From a virus: a stretch of DNA of 6,076 nucleotides. The notes beneath the pieces are model-generated. The model saw nothing but the letters and a program-made list of their open reading frames with translations, made no database searches and was not told the origin of the DNA. Below, piece after piece: positions 95 to 6,076 of the stretch. Every line of letters begins with the position of its first letter. The first letter of the stretch is position 1. The position numbers were made by a program, and so were the translations under genes. The DNA lies in IMG/VR virus record IMGVR_UViG_3300034041_000023. One strand, 5' to 3'.

Positions 95-285
95 GGCGGG
101 CGAGTAGCGCCAGCATATCCACCCCGAATGACTTCGAGAGGATTTATGCCAGCTTCGCGCGCCTGTCTCACGGCATCTTTAATTCGGTTGTCAAAAGCGT
201 CTTGCTTTTGCTTGCCCGAAAGCAAGTTGCCGATCAATCCAAGAACCGGACTAATCGGCAAGCCGAATAGAGTTTCAATAGCCAT
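1..285 (-). CDS. VP2: DNA pilot / minor capsid protein (VP2/H-like), N-terminal part. The true start codon is at 285. The gene crosses the circular junction (5506..6076 then 95..285 in circular terms, 253 aa in total).
   Basis: ATG at 285..283 with GGAAG 8 nt upstream. Hand translation gives MAIETLFGLPISPVLGLIGNLLSGKQKQDAFDNRIKDAVRQAREAGINPLEVIRGGYAGATRPPL, which runs without a stop into the MSQTAMTN... ORF of the track (195 nt = 65 codons, same frame). A Gly/Leu-rich hydrophobic N-terminus followed by an AGINPL-type motif resembles microvirus pilot proteins as I remember them. The gene sits directly upstream of the capsid gene. Confidence 0.8.
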   Translation of the reverse strand, partial: MAIETLFGLPISPVLGLIGNLLSGKQKQDAFDNRIKDAVRQAREAGINPLEVIRGGYAGATRPPLMSQTAMTNTFDQLDDVLTGRKAAEQKALEL

Positions 286-458
286 TAAAGCAGCTTCCGA
301 ACAAAGAGATCGAAAACAATACCGACCGCAAGCGGAACGGCATTTACGACCAAGTTAACGTCGTGCTCGACGTAGCCGAGCGTTGCGATATATGCGCCCG
401 CCATCGTTCCGAGGCGGTGCGACATAGGTTTAACAATCTGTTCCAAAATCCAATACAT
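285..458 (-). CDS. Small hydrophobic protein, 57 aa (hypothetical; possible membrane or lysis accessory protein)
   Basis: ATG at 458 preceded by AGAAAGGG (SD-like) 4-5 nt upstream, lying in the last codons of the upstream ORF. Product: MYWILEQIVKPMSHRLGTMAGAYIATLGYVEHDVNLVVNAVPLAVGIVFDLFVRKLL. It has one clear hydrophobic stretch of about 20 aa (VNLVVNAVPLAVGIVFDLFV) and a weaker one (LGTMAGAYIATLGYV). Its TAA stop (287..285) overlaps the VP2 ATG (285..283) as TAATG. Confidence 0.55.
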   Translation of the reverse strand: MYWILEQIVKPMSHRLGTMAGAYIATLGYVEHDVNLVVNAVPLAVGIVFDLFVRKLL

Positions 459-460
459 GC

Positions 461-790
461 TTACCCTTTCTTCGTGCAGTAAGGAATGAAGCGGCGGGAA
501 TTCCCGCCTTTGCTTCGGTTGTCTTTGGGACGTTGTTTGCACGTCTCACGCCTCAAAGGCTCGGGAGGCGGCCTTTCTGGATTGCGTGCCTCAACAACGT
601 CCCGCGAACGGTTCACGAGTGACCCGTCCGCTACCGAATTATCAACGCGACCAATGCGTTGATAATCGGAAAAGGTATCAATCAGACCCCGACGACGCCT
701 AGAAGCTATGACCCTTCGGTCATAAGCTGGACGCGGTGCCAAGTTACTTGGGGTATCGTCGCGGGTGCGTGATCGTGATTTTCTGGCCAT
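461..790 (-). CDS. Arg-rich basic protein, 109 aa (hypothetical; possible ssDNA-binding or packaging protein, J/ORF8/VP5-like role)
   Basis: ATG at 790 with AGGGGG 6-7 nt upstream, 23 nt after the rep stop. By hand count it has about 23 Arg and 6 Lys against 13 Asp/Glu. N-terminus is MARKSRSRTRDD..., with an internal RRRR. Same strand and tight spacing with neighbours. No recognisable catalytic motif. Confidence 0.55.
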   Translation of the reverse strand: MARKSRSRTRDDTPSNLAPRPAYDRRVIASRRRRGLIDTFSDYQRIGRVDNSVADGSLVNRSRDVVEARNPERPPPEPLRRETCKQRPKDNRSKGGNSRRFIPYCTKKG

Positions 791-813
791 AGTAGCCCCC
801 TGATGCTGTTAGC

Positions 814-1773
814 CTATTTTAAGACATAGTTTTGCGCCGCGCGCAAGTCTCTTAACAGAAGTTCGTTTTTGTAATCCGCCATCTCCCTATCGGTCATGGG
901 CGGCTGTTCGAACCGTCGGGTGCCCTGCTGATCTTCGTAATATTCGAATATATGCGCATAGTGGCCCTTGTCGAAATCATCTTTCAACTTTTTCAGGATG
1001 TAGCGCCGATAGGCGTTTTCCATCCATTCAGTCTTCACAGCGTTGCGACCTTCCGGCCAGAGCTCAAAGAGCCGGTCGAAATATTCCTCTTGGGCTTTGC
1101 CTTGCAAAGTGTATCGCCAGCCGGACCGATGCGCAAACGGCGGTGTATAGTTGAAATTGCGCGGAAACACTCGCATTTCTGCTTGTCTTTCCGCTAGTTG
1201 ACGCACCATCGCTTGCCCTAAAATCGGGCGCTTTGAGTATCCTATCCACTCGGATAGGTGCTGCGTCTTATCGCGCTTTTTCTTGCGCTCTTGTTCTTTG
1301 GCTTTCACCAGATATTTGACAATATATCTGATTTTCGCCTCAGAGGCCCCGTAATCTGCGTAGACATAGCCCCAAGGCCAATGCTTCCAGCTTACGTAGG
1401 GTTTTTTTTCTGGTATGTCGGGCGGTAGCCCTTGCCCCATGAGGAGGCAATGAAAATGGGTGCGACCCTTTCTTTCGCCATATTCCCCAGCGGCAACATA
1501 CTTAAACTGCCAGTGCCGCCTTAAACGACGTTGGAATTTTTGGAAATCTTCGACGTTAACCACCTTTGTTTGCAAAGGGTTTATGATCTTTCGGTCATCG
1601 TAGGTCAGTGTTAGGGCTAGCGTCCAATCGCTGTCAGCAGCTTCCATTAATGTTCGACCAATTAGGTCAAACATTTTGTTTTTGTTGCAAGCGTAACAGT
1701 GGTTGCACGGAACCAACACTTTTTCAAAGGAAGGCCCGACGGGCTTCCAGATAGGTTGAGGGTTAACGCACAT
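814..1773 (-). CDS. VP4: Replication initiation protein (Microviridae VP4 / gene A-like HUH endonuclease), 319 aa
   Basis: ATG at 1773 with GAGGT 8 nt upstream (1786..1782). N-terminal Cys cluster PCNHCYACNKNK. HUH superfamily motifs are in the right order: motif I LTLTY (aa 54-58), motif II HFHCLL (aa 106-111), motif III with paired tyrosines YIVKY (Y150/Y154). Confidence 0.95.
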   Translation of the reverse strand: MCVNPQPIWKPVGPSFEKVLVPCNHCYACNKNKMFDLIGRTLMEAADSDWTLALTLTYDDRKIINPLQTKVVNVEDFQKFQRRLRRHWQFKYVAAGEYGERKGRTHFHCLLMGQGLPPDIPEKKPYVSWKHWPWGYVYADYGASEAKIRYIVKYLVKAKEQERKKKRDKTQHLSEWIGYSKRPILGQAMVRQLAERQAEMRVFPRNFNYTPPFAHRSGWRYTLQGKAQEEYFDRLFELWPEGRNAVKTEWMENAYRRYILKKLKDDFDKGHYAHIFEYYEDQQGTRRFEQPPMTDREMADYKNELLLRDLRAAQNYVLK

Positions 1774-1798
1774 GTATTTTTACCTCGTTAGGCGTGAC

Positions 1799-1840
1799 GG
1801 CAGTTAGAATACGGTATCAAGTAGGTGTATTCTAACGGCC
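1799..1840 (-). promoter_or_regulatory. Hairpin with a phiX174-origin-like decamer in its loop: candidate viral-strand replication origin (Rep nick site)
   Basis: Perfect 10-bp stem 1803-1812 (gttagaatac) / 1827-1836 (gtattctaac). It extends to 14 bp (1799-1840) with one mismatch at 1802/1837. The 14-nt loop reads ACCTACTTGATACC on the coding strand. CTACTTGATA (complement of 1815-1824) matches the phiX174 ori decamer CAACTTGATA at 9/10 positions. The structure is certain; the function is inferred. Confidence 0.5.
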
Positions 1841-1858
1841 CGCAAATTTACAAGTAAA
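1829..1858 (-). promoter_or_regulatory. Possible sigma70-type promoter for rep and the downstream gene train
   Basis: On the minus strand: TTTACT (1858..1853), an 18-nt spacer, then TAGAAT (1834..1829), about 55 nt upstream of the rep ATG. Hexamer matches are 4/6 and 5/6. The host is unknown, so this is weak. Confidence 0.25.
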
Positions 1859-1873
1859 TTTGCGGGCCGTTAG
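1832..1873. repeat. Perfect palindrome (20-nt arms) that overlaps the candidate ori hairpin by 5 nt
   Basis: ctaacggcccgcaaatttac (1832-1851), aa, gtaaatttgcgggccgttag (1854-1873). The arms are exact reverse complements. It shares CTAAC 1832-1836 with the right arm of the 1803-1836 hairpin, so the two folds exclude each other. Confidence 0.9.
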
Positions 1874-1881
1874 AGTTTTCG

Positions 1882-1906
1882 TCGCTTCGCTCCGTTCGCT
1901 TCGCTC
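1882..1906. repeat. Direct repeat TCGCTTCGCTC x2 (1882-1892, 1896-1906). A third 10-nt copy lies at 2177-2186.
   Basis: Read directly. The third copy sits in the loop of hairpin unit 1 of the tandem repeat. Unit 2 carries the variant TCGCTGCGCT (2243-2252). Confidence 0.85.
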
Positions 1907-1923
1907 ATTTTGTCGCGCTAACG

Positions 1924-2013
1924 CGCGGCTTTGTTCGCACCACGCCCAGACAGCGCGCACGTAGTGACCCTTCGGGGCTGACTGTCTCGGCGTGGTGCCT
2001 GCGCCGCGTTTTT
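1924..2013. other. Long compound hairpin followed by T5 on the + strand
   Basis: Base stem cgcggc (1924-1929) / gccgcg (2003-2008). Main stem 1937-1953 / 1982-1998 is 17 bp with one C-C mismatch (1947/1988). Apical CCC-TTCG-GGG sits at 1968-1977. TTTTT at 2009-2013. Confidence 0.8.
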
Positions 2014-2084
2014 GGGTTAGCGCATTTTTAGTTAGATCGTTTGCGTGTAACCTGCTGCGATCCGGCTAAAGCCCATTCTGATAG

Positions 2085-2110
2085 GCAAATTCGGCGAATT
2101 TGCTTTTCTG
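2085..2110. other. Small AT-rich hairpin GCAAATT-cggcg-AATTTGC followed by TTTTCTG on the + strand
   Basis: Stem 2085-2091 / 2097-2103, loop 2092-2096, T4 at 2104-2107. The same GCAAATT/AATTTGC arms occur within the 1832-1873 palindrome (1842-1848 / 1857-1863). Confidence 0.7.
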
Positions 2111-2127
2111 CTTGACTACCGTTGGTT

Positions 2128-2300
2128 CGGGGGGCGGTGCCCACCCATCGCTTTTACCCGTGTTCTTGGTCAATGCTCGCTTCGCTGCGCGTTGACCAGG
2201 AACACTTCTGTTGCGTTCGGTAATCGTGTTCTTGGTCAATGCTCGCTGCGCTGTGCGTTGACCAGGAACACTTGCGTTGTGGTAGCGATGGCCCACCCCC
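2128..2300. repeat. Composite structured element: two tandem 66-nt hairpin units enclosed by an 8-bp stem and G6/C6 runs
   Basis: Unit 1 stem is gtgttcttggtcaa 2160-2173 / ttgaccaggaacac 2192-2205. Unit 2 stem is 2226-2239 / 2258-2271. Each stem is 14 bp with the same single T-G position, and each loop is 18 nt. The unit cores differ at only 2 loop positions. Flanks: ccatcgct 2144-2151 pairs with agcgatgg 2284-2291, and cgggggg (2128-2134) pairs with ccccccg (2296-2302 approx). Confidence 0.9.
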
Positions 2301-2405
2301 CGTTTTCTGAGGGCGTAACGCCTCTTTCTTTGCTATGAAGGGGGTAAGGCCGATTTAATCGTTTCACCCCCGCCTTGAGGCTATTTTGGGGGTTAGAAAC
2401 GAATT

Positions 2406-2426
2406 GGGGGCGCAGTTAGCGCCCCC
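2406..2426 (-). terminator. GC-rich hairpin immediately after the last minus-strand ORF: candidate terminator of the gene train (possibly bidirectional)
   Basis: gggggcgc (2406-2413), agtta, gcgccccc (2419-2426): a perfect 8-bp stem. On the minus strand it begins 5 nt after the TAA of the 49-aa ORF and is followed by AATTCGTTTCT, which is only moderately U-rich. On the + strand it is followed by TTGTTTAGTT. Confidence 0.5.
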
Positions 2427-2430
2427 TTGT

Positions 2431-2580
2431 TTAGTTCTGTGGTCCAATGTGAGACTTTTGGACCTTTTGCCTATCCTCAACATGGTTCCAAACGTTGGAG
2501 ATATGCTCGCTCAAATGAGCATTGAGCGTTATCAACTGTTTGAAGTCGAGGCGGCATATAGCGTCAATGGCATCAGCCAT
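2431..2580 (-). CDS. Small hydrophilic protein, 49 aa (hypothetical), not in the supplied ORF track
   Basis: Hand translation from ATG 2580 gives MADAIDAICRLDFKQLITLNAHLSEHISNVWNHVEDRQKVQKSHIGPQN, stop TAA at 2433..2431. The ATG lies 10 nt after the peptidase stop, and the spacer AGAAAAGGCA contains AAGG. It is on the same strand as all other genes and is followed at once by the 2406-2426 hairpin. Confidence 0.45.
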   Translation of the reverse strand: MADAIDAICRLDFKQLITLNAHLSEHISNVWNHVEDRQKVQKSHIGPQN

Positions 2581-2590
2581 TGCCTTTTCT

Positions 2591-3298
2591 TTATTGATCA
2601 TGATTGTAATTCCCTGTGGTAATTCGAGTTGCCGAATAAGGAGTGCTTACCTCGTGGAAGCCATCAGGAAGCACTTTAGCGCGGTTGATCCAATCGCTTA
2701 ACTGCCAGTGGGCAGGATCCCATTTAAACCGATCGTTAGGATCACGAAGGGAAGCAGCGAATTGGTTGCCGCTTTCATCGCCGCCCCAAACGATTTTGGT
2801 TCCATTGCCCAAGCGCATTTGCTTGGCAATGCGTTTGCCGGTCATGCCGACATAAAGCCAAAACTCTTTGGGGCAATCCCAATGGTGGTAGGCGTGAACA
2901 ATATCAAGAGCGCAAGAGCGCTGATGAGGTCCGCTCAGAACCTTAGAGAAACCGGCAGAAGCCAGTTCATACTGAAGTTCTGGCGAACGATAGACTGTAT
3001 GAACATACATGGGCACACCGTCCTTGCGGAATTGCCGAAACAGTTTTTCGGCGAATTCTCGCAATTCAGGAGGACAGCCAACCCAGTTGGCTTTGGCATG
3101 TAGTTTCAACATGTAGTCGCTATTGAAAGCGTCAGGTTCCGCTTTCAAATATTGAAGTTGCTTTGCAACGTCAGTTGGGAACCACTTTTCAAAGGGATCA
3201 ATCGGAAAGTTAACTTTCCGGCCTCGTGCCTTTTCAAAGAGTTCGCGGATTGTCGAAACGACATATCCAGCTTTTAACAGATCCAATTTCCAGTTCAT
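2591..3298 (-). CDS. Zinc metallopeptidase of the LAS / peptidase M15 (VanY / L-Ala-D-Glu peptidase-like) type, 235 aa: probable peptidoglycan hydrolase (endolysin)
   Basis: ATG at 3298 with AAAGG 7 nt upstream. Motifs are in canonical order: YRSPELQ (aa 103-109); SGPHQRSCALD with H125 and D132, matching the H-x6-D part of the S-x-H-x-x-G-x-A-x-D signature (A and D in register); WGGD (aa 171-174); and DPAHW with H197 (the D-x-x-H motif). Codons were checked on the sequence: H125 = 2924-2926, D132 = 2903-2905, H197 = 2708-2710. No signal peptide or TM segment at the N-terminus. Confidence 0.8.
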   Translation of the reverse strand: MNWKLDLLKAGYVVSTIRELFEKARGRKVNFPIDPFEKWFPTDVAKQLQYLKAEPDAFNSDYMLKLHAKANWVGCPPELREFAEKLFRQFRKDGVPMYVHTVYRSPELQYELASAGFSKVLSGPHQRSCALDIVHAYHHWDCPKEFWLYVGMTGKRIAKQMRLGNGTKIVWGGDESGNQFAASLRDPNDRFKWDPAHWQLSDWINRAKVLPDGFHEVSTPYSATRITTGNYNHDQ

Positions 3299-3319
3299 TT
3301 TGAGCCTTTCAGATGTAGT

Positions 3320-3341
3320 GGAAGGGCGAGACCGCCCTTCC
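3320..3341. other. Intercistronic hairpin between the 169-aa gene and the peptidase gene
   Basis: ggaagggcg (3320-3328), agac, cgcccttcc (3333-3341): a perfect 9-bp stem in a 58-nt spacer. The T-rich run (tattattt) follows it on the + strand only. Confidence 0.8.
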
Positions 3342-3356
3342 TATTATTTGCCGCAG

Positions 3357-3866
3357 CTACACTTCTTTTTCTGCGGTTGTCGGTTCTGCGGCTTCCGGTT
3401 CGATTGCGTCCGGTTCCGCTTCGGCGGGAGTTTCTTCTTCGAGTGTTTCAAAGTCTAGGTCCTGATCTTTGCGGCGTTTGGCCAGCATTTTTTCAAATTC
3501 CAATTTCTGCTGACGCTTTTCAGCGAGTTGCTTCAACTGAATTTGGCGCAACGCCTGTTTGACATACTGTTCAGCGGGGCTATCCATCGGTTTCTTTTCG
3601 GCATTGGTAAAAACCTCACCGACAGATTGAGCAGCCTTAGGAGCGTCACGAATGACGCAAATTTCGGCTGTGGATGTGAAATGGTGGTGATCGTCAGGGC
3701 CGACGATATGGAAATAACTTCCATAACCCAGCAAGGACTTTGCAGCCCCAACATGGATATACAACGGCGCCTCAGCAGAAAGACGTAGGCGCGTTGTTCC
3801 ATAGGCGGGCACTTTCGCGCCCGCTTTGAACATTTCGGTGTTTGGGTTGTATTTGATCGTTTGCAT
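3357..3866 (-). CDS. Hypothetical 169-aa protein; possible internal scaffolding protein (VP3-like) by position and composition
   Basis: ATG at 3866..3864 overlaps the VP1 stop TAA (3868..3866) as TAATG. The N-terminal ~90 aa look beta-rich and contain a DDHHHF patch. These are followed by a charged helical segment (LRQIQLKQLAEKRQQKLEFEKMLAKRRK) and an acidic Pro/Glu/Ala tail. I recognise no diagnostic motif. Confidence 0.7.
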   Translation of the reverse strand: MQTIKYNPNTEMFKAGAKVPAYGTTRLRLSAEAPLYIHVGAAKSLLGYGSYFHIVGPDDHHHFTSTAEICVIRDAPKAAQSVGEVFTNAEKKPMDSPAEQYVKQALRQIQLKQLAEKRQQKLEFEKMLAKRRKDQDLDFETLEEETPAEAEPDAIEPEAAEPTTAEKEV

Positions 3867-5488
3867 TAGATTTGCTCCGCTTCGACTGCCAAGAATTCGG
3901 CGTTATCTTCGACGAGCGCGTCGCCGAATTGAGTAATCCCAACAATAGAAATCTGTTGGAGAACTGAAATGTTCACGCAGTGGTTCGAAGGAACACTGAA
4001 CACATCTTGAGGGAAAGGCGAAGGGCAAAGCCAATGATCCGAAGTAAAGACAGGATCAACAATGTCAGCTTGCCAAAGGCCAGTTCGTGCAGTGGTCGAC
4101 GGCGTTCCCGGCGTGGACTGGATAAATTCACCGCCAAGGCGGGTGTATTCGCGTTTCCACTTAGAATTCATTGGCTCATAGCCAAACGTCCCATCAGGGG
4201 TAGAATGCGCCGTATCAAGACGCCGGTTAATAACCGTGTCAACCGGTTCAATCCGCTGAATGTCGCGCATAGCGTTCGGAAGATCGTCAACGTCCGTGAC
4301 ATAAAGATATTCATCAGATTGACGCTCATAAAGCCGTTCAGGCATAACCTCGACCGTCGCCATAATCACGCCGCCATAATCCGACGTTGGGACGTTGACG
4401 TTCAAAGACATTTGAGCACGGCCCGTAGTAATACTGTCATCCAGATTTGCCGCGTCTGTCGCGTGACGCTCTTGCATACCGAAAACAACAGTTTTGCTAT
4501 CCAGCAACCAAGGGCGCTGAAGAAGTTCGTTTGGAACGGTAAAGCCTTGCATAAGTTCGGCCATAACTACGTCATCGTTATTGAACCCGCTAAAATCGCT
4601 ACCGTCATAGGCCGCGACACGTTTAGCAAAGGCTTGCGTAGTGCGCGCCTTGTCAACGTTTGCAAGAGTGGTAGTGATGGTCGTTCCGGCAAGTTCTGTA
4701 AACACTTCGTTGGATTGGTAATAATCGCCAACATCTGTCACAGTGCCCGAGGCACGAATAGCCAAATTATTGTGCGGCTGATCCAAAGAAGCACGATAAT
4801 TAGCAGTTCCGGGATTGACAGTTTCGGCGAAGGACAAGGGAACCTGTCCCGCCGAAACGTCGAGATCAAGAGCACCTGTTACGAGTGCCTGTTCATAATC
4901 CGGCACGATGTCGTGCATACGGTTGCGCGGCCAAAAGGCCTGTTTCAATTTACGCGCTTCACTCGCGTTCTCCGACCAATACTCGTTACGGGGCAATTTC
5001 GATGAATGCGATGCCAATCGGAAATTGTGAATATGATTGTAAACGTCGATATACTCATGGTTGATCACCTGAGAAGCGACACCATGAATTCCCAAAGTTT
5101 TATAAATTTCAGACGCCAAATCGGCACTCACCGAGCCTGACGGCGTTGTTTCAAACAACGCTGGCGGCGTTCGCGTCGAACTGTTCAACGCAGTAATGCT
5201 TTTGCCATGATATGCGTGCGTGTATTCATCAAGGCCTGAATAGTATGGAAGCGACGGACGAGGCACAAACCAGACTTGCCCACGGGCAATGACAGCGTTT
5301 TCCAATGGTTTTGGCATTTCTGCCAATTCCATTTGAATTGCAATGCGCCCGCTGGCGCTATCCTTGCGAAGCAATGGCGCTACGGCGACAGGGATAACAA
5401 CGCCAGCGTTGCCAGACGTGCGAAGAGCGACGTTATCCATGCGGCGTGTCATGCCATACTGAAGAGGTTCTGCGTTTTGTTTGATCAT
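3866..5488 (-). CDS. VP1: Major capsid protein (Microviridae VP1 / F-like), 540 aa
   Basis: Largest ORF. ATG at 5488 with AAGGA about 9 nt upstream, 17 nt after the VP2 stop. The size is typical of gokushovirus-like capsid proteins. The N-terminal pattern NAGVVIPVAVAPLLRKDS resembles the conserved G-x-hydrophobic-IP...LPGD region of VP1 proteins. Genome context: rep, pilot and capsid on a 6-kb circle. Confidence 0.88.
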   Translation of the reverse strand: MIKQNAEPLQYGMTRRMDNVALRTSGNAGVVIPVAVAPLLRKDSASGRIAIQMELAEMPKPLENAVIARGQVWFVPRPSLPYYSGLDEYTHAYHGKSITALNSSTRTPPALFETTPSGSVSADLASEIYKTLGIHGVASQVINHEYIDVYNHIHNFRLASHSSKLPRNEYWSENASEARKLKQAFWPRNRMHDIVPDYEQALVTGALDLDVSAGQVPLSFAETVNPGTANYRASLDQPHNNLAIRASGTVTDVGDYYQSNEVFTELAGTTITTTLANVDKARTTQAFAKRVAAYDGSDFSGFNNDDVVMAELMQGFTVPNELLQRPWLLDSKTVVFGMQERHATDAANLDDSITTGRAQMSLNVNVPTSDYGGVIMATVEVMPERLYERQSDEYLYVTDVDDLPNAMRDIQRIEPVDTVINRRLDTAHSTPDGTFGYEPMNSKWKREYTRLGGEFIQSTPGTPSTTARTGLWQADIVDPVFTSDHWLCPSPFPQDVFSVPSNHCVNISVLQQISIVGITQFGDALVEDNAEFLAVEAEQI

Positions 5489-5505: not shown

Positions 5506-6076
5506 TTACTTGTTTTTCCAGTTTTCATCAACTGGAACACCAGATGCACGCTGCACATCGTTATACGAGCGATTAATTGCATCCGATACTGTGGACTTAA
5601 GCTGAGGCAAACCGCCCCAAGACTTAAATTGAAGATATTTGTTGATGAAGAAGCCAGAGGCCATTTCATCCAAATCAGGGCCAACCGGCACTTGCGCGGT
5701 TAGTCCGTCCTTACCAACATAAGTTTGCGTTGGGCTTTCAACCATATCCGAAACAATTTCGCCGGTGCTGTTATAGGACAGTCCCAGCTTTGGCGAAGGC
5801 AAAGAAGGGGAATTGATTGCTCGAAGAGCAGTTGTAGTAATGAAATCTGGTTCAGGAACACCTTTCATTTGAGGAGTTGGAAATCTTGCCGGTATCACAG
5901 AACCGGCAAGAGAAGGGCTAGCAAGGCCAGCGGTGCTATTTGCCTTAGCTGCGTCAATCTCAATTTTCATGAGATCATTGCGCAGTTCTAAGGCCTTTTG
6001 CTCGGCCGCTTTGCGTCCGGTTAATACATCGTCTAATTGGTCGAATGTATTGGTCATAGCCGTTTGAGACATTAGA
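5506..6076 (-). CDS. VP2: DNA pilot / minor capsid protein VP2, C-terminal 188+ aa. The frame is open to the window end and continues at 94..285 of the circular map.
   Basis: The ORF track entry 5506..6072 starts at an internal Met. The preceding codon (CTA, 6075..6073) and the duplicated copy at 1..94 show that the frame continues upstream to the ATG at 285. Stop TAA is at 5508..5506. Confidence 0.8.
   Translation of the reverse strand, partial: LMSQTAMTNTFDQLDDVLTGRKAAEQKALELRNDLMKIEIDAAKANSTAGLASPSLAGSVIPARFPTPQMKGVPEPDFITTTALRAINSPSLPSPKLGLSYNSTGEIVSDMVESPTQTYVGKDGLTAQVPVGPDLDEMASGFFINKYLQFKSWGGLPQLKSTVSDAINRSYNDVQRASGVPVDENWKNK
5983..6076. repeat. Terminal direct repeat, copy B (identical to 1..94)
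   Basis: Same 94-nt string as 1..94. 5983-1 = 5982 gives the unit length. Confidence 0.97.

Follow-up and report, generated by a model that had tools for sequence, protein, structure and literature searches.

A putative viral-strand replication origin with a phiX174-type nick motif in an intergenic stem-loop upstream of rep in a microvirus genome

The virus record IMGVR_UViG_3300034041_000023 of IMG/VR, analysed here as a 6,076-nucleotide stretch of DNA (referred to as the window), contains a small hairpin at positions 1799-1840, just upstream of the gene that codes for its rolling-circle initiator protein (rep). The comparisons described below indicate that this region is very probably the viral-strand (plus) origin of rolling-circle replication, and the exact bond G1818/A1817 is predicted, with fair though lesser confidence, to be the nick. 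The origin would probably also include the conserved block that extends to position 1787 and an adjacent 21-bp hairpin at 1831-1874. The region is read as an origin because CTTG/ATA (the slash denotes the site of cleavage) is the established core cleaved by phiX174 protein A, and CTTGATA is the nick site of the pC194-type replication proteins. Sequence comparison supports the description of the element as a phiX/pC194-type CTTG/AT nick site, presented in an intergenic stem-loop and equipped with lineage-specific accessory parts.

Every long open reading frame (ORF) of the window lies on its minus strand. In Microviridae the packaged strand is the gene-sense strand, which corresponds here to the minus strand of the window. 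Read on this strand, the hairpin has the arm-loop-arm sequence GGCCGTTAGAATAC-ACCTACTTGATACC-GTATTCTAACTGCC, exactly as in the original prediction, which had been made from the letters of the sequence alone. A repeat search recovers its arms (1799-1812 and 1827-1840) as 14 nt each, 13/14 (93%) complementary and 14 nt apart, with 10 contiguous pairs formed between GTTAGAATAC and GTATTCTAAC. The element is intergenic, as proposed, and the hairpin spans 25-66 nt 5' of the rep ATG (1773).

The loop contains the decamer CTACTTGATA (1824..1815, minus strand), the only match in the window to the phiX174 decamer CAACTTGATA when at most one mismatch is allowed, and within it the exact heptamer CTTGATA (1821..1815, minus strand). 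The phiX174 sequence used in the original prediction is right: NC_001422 reads CAACTTGATATTAATAACACTATAGACCAC with a rep_origin annotated at A4306, and the 9/10 match, including the entire CTTG/ATA core, stands against this verified sequence. Cleavage in phiX174 occurs between G4305 and A4306 (bioRxiv 10.64898/2026.07.25.740675), and by this position the cut in the window is predicted to fall between 1818 (G) and 1817 (A). It was also correctly stated that the phiX174 origin lies within gene A (A4306 being inside 3981..136) and not in a hairpin, as no inverted repeat encloses it. By itself, the decamer match is not significant: matches with at most one mismatch are expected 0.29 times per window, close to the earlier rough estimate of 0.35, and at least one was found in 50 of 200 shuffled sequences. 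The argument is therefore carried by the context, as had been anticipated, and not by the match alone.

The context was assessed among the relatives of the window at two levels. Close relatives are contigs of Rep homologues with 36-84% identity, fetched individually; the wider clade, at about 30% Rep identity, comprises marine genomes, the cultured Roseobacter phage CRPss-151, Tortoise microvirus 38 and a bat-faeces microvirus. Comparative counts refer to 39 non-redundant, Occultatumvirinae-like relatives (37 for the long hairpin). In every close relative, the rep-sense strand carries a long GC-rich hairpin, followed about 10-14 nt on by CTTGAT (with the variants CTTGTT in locus L095 and CTTGAC in L105 at the homologous place), by GTAT or GTGT 2-3 nt past CTTGAT, and by an ACTG/AGTG box about 11-14 nt further, such that the rep ATG lies 28-55 nt past CTTGAT. 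The GTAT/GTGT, at the position of the 3' arm of the small hairpin, is kept clade-wide, even where it has no pairing partner. In the wider clade the order is a long hairpin, (T)CTTG(A/T)T, a highly conserved box, TATGCATTTAGTGACAC, and rep, and the box is conserved across the 39 non-redundant loci. All parts of this Occultatumvirinae-type module (long GC hairpin, CYYG/W, 3' box, rep) are present in the window, in order, on the sense strand and only once.

The equivalent of the box in the window, TCTAACTGCCGTCAC, is located inside an invariant block (1821..1787, minus strand) that is 100% identical in the window and in its two closest relatives, L091 (84% Rep identity) and L002 (79%). In the same three genomes, no alignment is possible over the remainder of the 650-nt non-coding region, and many synonymous changes are seen in rep. 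The 3' box is a putative Rep-binding "key", the equivalent in this clade of the marine box. The sequence of the long hairpin varies among the three genomes, its pairing being retained; a GTTAG to GTTTG change in L091 and L002 preserves the pairing of the long hairpin at the cost of one pair in the small one. A long hairpin of at least 11 pairs was found in 35 of the 37 non-redundant relatives, as opposed to 0.9% of random 110-nt windows. The distance from its end to the putative nick is 8-14 nt in the non-marine group and mostly 15-25 nt in the marine group.

A profile was also built with nhmmer on the 40-column core of the element of this clade. In each of about 80 loci it finds exactly one match, which invariably lies upstream of rep and on the sense strand. 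The same holds for loci outside the training set, in which the element is situated about 200 nt upstream of rep. The sole match in the window (1827..1794, minus strand) is weak, with 7.6 bits and E = 3.6, because the box of the window is divergent.

The small hairpin shows a different pattern. Perfect stems of at least 6 bp around the putative nick occur in 33% of the 39 loci, compared to 5.2% of random positions (18% and 1.5%, respectively, for at least 7 bp), and the nick falls within the loop of a minimum-free-energy hairpin in 54% versus 14% (DNA energy parameters). The stems differ by lineage, e.g., GCATATG/CATATGC, GTATAC/GTATAC, GGACAC/GTGTCC and GCAACAC/GTGTTGC, in addition to the stem of the window, which forms the strongest such hairpin of its clade. 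Because stems are enriched at the nick and their sequences are lineage-specific, the small hairpin is judged to be under selection, yet it is weak and dispensable in some lineages. What does not vary in the clade is the motif, together with the 3' box and the long hairpin upstream; the small hairpin is enriched but non-universal. It had been suggested that motif and hairpin be sought upstream of rep in related genomes, and this check came out in support of the prediction, well beyond the close relatives: the motif was found at the homologous place in every relative examined, although the small hairpin is not general in the clade of the window.

Hairpins with the same loop were identified in the gokushoviruses. 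Chp2 contains one at about 2903-2940, non-coding, between VP3 and ORF8 (CTAGCGTATAACAG-TCTACTTGAT-CTGTTATACGCTAG, given as arm-loop-arm); phiMH2K has a non-coding one at about 3297-3335 (GTTCGGCTAC-GGACCCTACTTGTTGTAA-GTAGCCGAAC); and SpV4 has one at about 510-545 (TGGGGCATAT-ATTACTTGTTATA-ATATGCCCCA). Further clades are alike, e.g., CAGCCATATGAC-CCTACTTGAT-GTCATATGGCTG. Among 80 gokushovirus-like IMG/VR genomes, retrieved with a Rep alignment, 72 (90%) show a perfect sense-strand hairpin of at least 7 bp whose loop contains CTTG[AT]. With stems of at least 9 bp the proportion is 75% of the 80 genomes, compared to 3.8% when the antisense strand is scored and 0-7.5% when any of eleven permuted tetramers replaces the motif. 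Stems have a median length of 11 bp (range 7-14) and loops one of 11 nt, and the hairpin is located a median of 208 nt upstream of rep. The loop consensus is Y-T-A-C-T-T-G/A-T-G-T-A-A, in which the T at position +2 is present in 71 of the 72 hairpins, and RNAalifold detects compensatory changes at all 7 outer pairs of the hairpin alignment. Since the hairpins were picked for perfect stems, it is the enrichment over controls that is free of bias. These loop hairpins, in the type gokushoviruses and in the IMG/VR genomes, are probably the unmapped viral-strand origin of the subfamily. The phages that carry the motif infect unrelated hosts (Chlamydia, Spiroplasma, Bdellovibrio and Roseobacter), and the same loop across such hosts therefore points to recognition by the shared phage Rep, not by a host factor.

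The hairpin of the window conforms to the gokushovirus type, taken here as a stem of about 9-14 bp with the motif in a loop of 8-15 nt: it combines a 10-bp stem and a 14-nt loop with CTACTTGAT, is non-coding and on the sense strand, and ends 25 nt upstream of rep. The 9-mer CTACTTGAT is identical to the gokushovirus loop consensus YTACTTG/AT and to Chp2. We also constructed a covariance model (termed R1) from 36 gokushovirus-type hairpins, none from the clade of the window, and scanned both strands of the window unfiltered. Its top match is the small hairpin (1836..1803, minus strand; 15.3 bits, E about 0.06 by rough calibration), followed by the tip of the long hairpin (12.6 bits). No clear equivalent hairpin was found in Chp1 or in Ruegeria phage DSS3-P22, and the element is accordingly widespread but non-universal.

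We favour, with moderate confidence, a joint reading in which most Microviridae outside the phiX174 group have a YTACTTG/(A/T)T hairpin as their viral-strand origin, and in which the lineage of the window has remodelled the ancestral hairpin into a composite origin. The clades concerned would be the gokushoviruses of Chlamydia, Spiroplasma and Bdellovibrio, the Occultatumvirinae of Alphaproteobacteria and others, with the core kept in common with phiX174 protein A and the pC194-type Reps. The composite origin would consist of a long hairpin for recognition, set at a fixed spacing, of a weak hairpin that displays the nick, and of the conserved 3' box.

The long hairpin of the window, which the original prediction had overlooked, is a perfect one of 21 bp; it ends 11 nt 5' of the putative nick, and its tip bears ACTTGT (1855..1850, minus strand). 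Ten nucleotides (1831-1840) are common to its 3' arm and to the 5' arm of the small hairpin, and these can pair either with 1865-1874, in the long hairpin, or with 1803-1812, in the small one; the corresponding overlap is 4 nt in L091 and L002, compared to 10 nt in the window. The minimum-free-energy fold is the 21-bp hairpin (-23.7 kcal/mol), and an alternative fold in which the two hairpins coexist (14 bp + 10 bp) comes at a cost of only 1.6 kcal/mol. In the ensemble of single-stranded DNA (ssDNA) folds, the pairs of the small hairpin have probabilities of about 0.35 (inner) and 0.02-0.09 (outer), and the bases of the motif stay unpaired in both conformers (p at least 0.73). The claim that the decamer is displayed in a hairpin loop stands with a qualification: the hairpin exists and the motif is unpaired, but this is only one of two competing conformers. 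The shared 10 nt could be a conformational switch between replication states. The 21-bp hairpin itself is probably an accessory element of the origin, either a recognition hairpin 5' of the nick or a complementary-strand origin.

The proximity of the element to rep, of which it lies directly upstream, raises the possibility that it is the promoter or operator of this gene, with TTGATA as a -35 hexamer or TAGAAT (in the 5' arm) as a -10 hexamer, in which case its conservation would stem from control of transcription instead of nicking. A sigma-70-like TTTACT-18-TAGAAT does occur at 1858..1829 of the sense strand, over the loop of the long hairpin and the 5' arm of the small one, and in rolling-circle replicons the origin and the rep promoter often overlap. 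Neither hexamer is kept in the closest relatives, however (GTTTGAATAC in both L091 and L002), and inspection by eye of nine relatives revealed no -10-like hexamer 16-18 nt past CTTGAT in any of them. Moreover, the rep ATG of L099 is only 28 nt past CTTGAT, too close for a promoter, and the gokushovirus-type hairpin is situated about 200 nt from rep. Stems that vary by lineage around a fixed loop suggest a structure rather than two hexamers, and the motif is a known nick site, although both roles could coexist. A purely regulatory element is hence unlikely. We considered further that the true nick could be in the TACTTG that the 21-bp hairpin bears at its tip (TTTACTTG/TAAA, with its C at 1854), the small hairpin serving only for Rep binding or termination. 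The window has seven CTTG[AT] on the sense strand, and only two of them, including this tip, are in strong hairpins; the tip is ranked second by R1; and a CTTG-type motif is also found in the long-hairpin loop of L091, L102, L105, L014, L096 and L099 (the tip reads TTTACTTGTAAA in the window, TCTTGAC in L102 and L014, and GCTTGTC in L105). Such a motif is lacking in most relatives, including L002 and all the marine ones, whereas every relative has the downstream CTTG(A/T)T at the homologous place. In addition, the tip loop has just 4-6 nt, with A at position +2 in place of the near-invariant T. A nick at the tip is thus quite improbable, and the tip motif could instead represent a relict or secondary site for Rep, a -35 box (TTGACA) of the duplex form, or a priming signal.

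Intergenic hairpins in ssDNA act as complementary-strand origins in phiX174 and G4, the latter having an annotated one in an intergenic region, and complementary-strand priming has been proposed tentatively, with the statement that it could not be certified, for the conserved Cap-Rep hairpins of roodoodoo- and reekeekeeviruses (PMC9865509). The hairpins of the window could likewise be read by host primase, PriA or RNA polymerase, in which case the likeness to CTTGAT would be coincidental. A signal read by the host would not be expected to keep one loop across phages of Chlamydia, Spiroplasma, Bdellovibrio and Alphaproteobacteria, and what is conserved in the loop corresponds exactly to the nick motif of related HUH initiators. 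This role therefore seems very unlikely for the motif, but is plausible for the adjacent 21-bp hairpin. Least of all do we expect a chance combination of an inverted repeat with a near-match, or a terminator, a packaging signal or a XerCD/dif-like site, any of which would be extremely unlikely. The non-coding region is indeed rich in inverted repeats and a decamer match alone carries little weight, yet chance is excluded by conservation in hundreds of genomes, and the sense strand has no T-run 3' of the small hairpin, as a terminator would. The dif geometry of two 11-bp arms and a 6-bp spacer in a 28-bp site (PMC7062461) differs from that of the hairpin, whose arms are 14 nt apart, and a XerCD/dif site was rejected. 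Neither integrated copies nor hosts were found in one scan of genome contigs with a single peptide pattern, which is weak evidence. A search of Rfam gave only sub-threshold matches to hairpin-like miRNA and CopA models, which were judged to be non-specific palindrome matches.

Several points weigh against the assignment of 1799-1840 as the viral-strand origin. The case is built on sequence analysis, and its starting point, the decamer, has the chance expectation given above. Competition from the 21-bp hairpin leaves the small hairpin only partly formed in ssDNA, and the small hairpin is weak or absent in the clade members L098, L099, L107 and L108. R1, even with its filters off, misses the element in 18 other loci of the wider clade. 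The second TACTTG at the tip of the long hairpin and the overlapping TTTACT-18-TAGAAT should also be counted here, and a promoter role may exist as an additional function. Finally, the clade profile does not detect the origins of phiX174 and G4, and similarity past CTTGAT is not demonstrable: nhmmer gave zero matches in phiX174, G4 (E up to 10), phiMH2K and Chp2. An extended homology to the 30-nt phiX174 origin was dropped on the lack of a match in phiX174 or G4, and the CAC that ends both the phiX174 and the window elements, 23 nt past the nick, is a by-eye observation without statistical support.

The proposed mode of action (binding, cleavage, the exact bond and the role of each hairpin) is modelled on homology with phiX174 protein A and the pC194-type Reps. 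The packaged strand would be converted by the host to a supercoiled duplex, in which the phage Rep, an HUH protein with the tyrosine pair Y150/Y154, would bind the conserved block. Extrusion of the AT-rich inverted repeat, of the GC hairpin beside it, or of both may then render CTACTTGATA single-stranded. HUH enzymes cut single-stranded DNA; a hairpin loop, or DNA beside an extruded hairpin, would therefore provide a suitable substrate for Rep. Rep would cut the gene-sense strand at G1818/A1817, the 5' A remaining tyrosine-linked, and the 3'-OH of the G would prime the host polymerase. After one round, the second tyrosine would cut the regenerated site and the first would join the ends, thereby releasing a circular viral strand.

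The features of the region are collected in Table 1.

Table 1. Coordinates of the putative origin and of neighbouring features in the window.
Feature	Position	Strand	Description
Small hairpin, 5' arm	1827..1840	-	GGCCGTTAGAATAC; contiguous core GTTAGAATAC = 1836..1827
Small hairpin, loop	1813..1826	-	14 nt, ACCTACTTGATACC; unpaired p at least 0.73 in the ssDNA ensemble
Small hairpin, 3' arm	1799..1812	-	GTATTCTAACTGCC; core GTATTCTAAC = 1812..1803
Nick-site motif CTACTTG/ATA	1815..1824	-	predicted viral-strand cut G1818/A1817
Invariant block	1787..1821	-	35 nt, CTTGATACCGTATTCTAACTGCCGTCACGCCTAAC; nick core and 3' box
Perfect 21-bp GC-rich hairpin	1831..1874	-	arms 1874..1854 and 1851..1831; directly 5' of the nick region
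Shine-Dalgarno-like GAGG	1783..1786	-	9 nt 5' of the rep ATG; predicted from sequence
rep	814..1773	-	319-aa HUH rolling-circle initiator; PF23343, E = 1.9e-16; phrog_942

The genome is circular, with a length of 5982 nt, and the window carries an exact 94-nt terminal repeat (1-94 = 5983-6076). In addition to the 319-aa initiator, the minus strand codes for a 540-aa capsid protein, an endolysin-like protein and small ORFs. The initiator falls within the Reps of Microviridae, GenBank phages being at most 34% identical (tblastn), and PF23343 was the sole family in a Pfam scan. Its HUH motif is HFH (H106/H108) and its tyrosine motif RYIVKY (Y150 and Y154); all four residues are invariant among 23 Rep homologues, and the N-terminus MCV (ATG at 1773) is kept in homologues. 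The Roseobacter phages CRPss-151 to -155 of the wider clade belong to the Occultatumvirinae or "Family 7", phages of Alphaproteobacteria (PMC11499846). The capsid protein (3866-5488, minus strand) is divergent for a microvirus: it has a marginal phrog_514 match (E = 0.002) and zero Pfam matches at E up to 0.01. Its gene contains a 9-bp hairpin at about 4806-4843 (minus strand), with the arms GTTTCGGCG and CGCCGAAAC and with CTTGT in a 20-nt loop that includes CCCTTGTCCTT (C at 4838); this hairpin is in coding sequence and is probably coincidental.

The non-coding region shows other repeats. Between 1700 and 2650 there are 11 terminator-like hairpins, versus 1.4 expected, most of them with the T-run on the plus (antisense) strand, so that A-runs precede the hairpins on the viral strand. 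A tandem pair of 55-nt repeats, 93% identical and 66 nt apart (termed D1; 2159-2213 and 2225-2279), occupies 2152-2284, and the core of the repeat is the inverted repeat GTGTTCTTGGTCAA...TTGACCAGGAACAC. The D1 copies are positioned exactly at the tip of a G-rich hairpin (2128-2151/2285-2302) that is uninterrupted in L091, and their arrangement suggests that a conserved hairpin has received an insertion or duplication. The loop ACGCGCAGCGAAGCGAGCAT is found again in a hairpin of Tortoise microvirus 38. The octamer GCGAAGCG has three sense-strand copies in the non-coding region (minus strand, at 2185, 1904 and 1890) and zero antisense copies genome-wide. It is also present in the non-coding DNA of relatives, including L092, L107 and L108, and its copies may act as iteron-like repeats or as a complementary-strand origin signal.

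In gut and ocean viromes, microviruses rank with the most abundant ssDNA phages, and outside the phiX174 group the searchable open-access literature maps no microvirus replication origin. A literature search did not find CTACTTGAT together with microvirus terms, and the main papers on microvirus diversity and taxonomy, as well as those on the clade of the window, are silent on origins, hairpins and intergenic elements. No description of a hairpin origin outside the phiX174 group appears in the searchable literature, the older genome papers on Chp2, phiMH2K and SpV4 being outside its reach. A conserved and recognisable origin would give thousands of metagenomic genomes a natural zero coordinate, offer Rep (VP4) proteins a substrate that can be tested directly, and supply the cis element required for phagemids or reverse genetics of uncultured microviruses. 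It would also be evidence for an ancient CTTG/AT cleavage specificity, common to phage and plasmid HUH initiators, and presentation in a hairpin would form a mechanistic link between bacterial microviruses and the stem-loop origins of eukaryotic CRESS-DNA viruses (those whose circular single-stranded DNA encodes a Rep). The mechanism as such would not surprise specialists in rolling-circle replication; the value of the element is in its family-wide conservation and in the testability of an unmapped origin.

Among known systems, the conjugative origins of transfer (oriT) and the sites of IS200/IS605-type HUH transposases resemble the element by analogy only, in the tight spacing between the long hairpin and the nick (8-14 nt in the group of the window). 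In oriT sites an inverted repeat is followed by a nick at a fixed distance 3' of it. The relaxase and transposase systems differ in that neither enzyme is encoded in the window. The CRESS-DNA viruses (geminiviruses, circoviruses and nanoviruses; TAATATT/AC) have in common with the window a nick site in an intergenic hairpin loop beside rep and a Rep of the HUH type. Their loop motif, NANTATT/AC, is absent from the loop of the window, ACCTACTTGATACC, and the Rep lineages differ; the elements are not homologous. CRESS Reps possess a single catalytic tyrosine and a fused SF3 helicase.

The double-strand origins of the pC194/pUB110 plasmid family have a nick heptamer identical to that of the window, CTTGATA, which is the conserved nick site of pC194-type Rep_1 plasmids (PMC10378824); the pC194 origin sequence is TTCTTATCTTGATAATAAGG (PMC7072734). 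In this family the initiator is Rep_1 (PF01446) and the flanks are unrelated to those of the window, which represents a phage with capsid genes and a PF23343 Rep. Closer to the window, in the same virus family, the viral-strand origin of phiX174 and the Bullavirinae is the 30-nt CAACTTG/ATATTAATAACACTATAGACCAC, cut by protein A. Both have the nick core CTTG/AT(A) on the packaged strand, with 9/10 of the decamer, and a like polarity, in which the nick motif is 5' and is followed by a conserved stretch of about 23-30 nt that is a possible binding "key", an order that resembles the succession of recognition sequence, AT spacer and key in phiX174. The initiators are also alike, combining HUH with two tyrosines in a YxxxY arrangement (RYIVKY in the window, YVAKY in phiX protein A), although phiX protein A defines PF05840 (PMC5714925) and the window Rep belongs to PF23343. 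As opposed to the phiX174 origin, inside gene A and without an enclosing inverted repeat, the element of the window is intergenic and in or next to hairpins.

The Gokushovirinae-type hairpins have in common with that of the window the same loop 9-mer, a stem of about 10-11 bp and a loop of about 11-14 nt, on the sense strand and in non-coding DNA. The gokushovirus stems are longer and conserved in sequence (AGCACAGTTAC paired with GTAACTGTGCT), and are located about 200 nt from rep. In the clade of the window, unlike in the gokushoviruses, the small hairpin is weak or variable and is accompanied by a conserved 3' box and, 8-25 nt before the nick, by a universal long GC hairpin that is separate from it.

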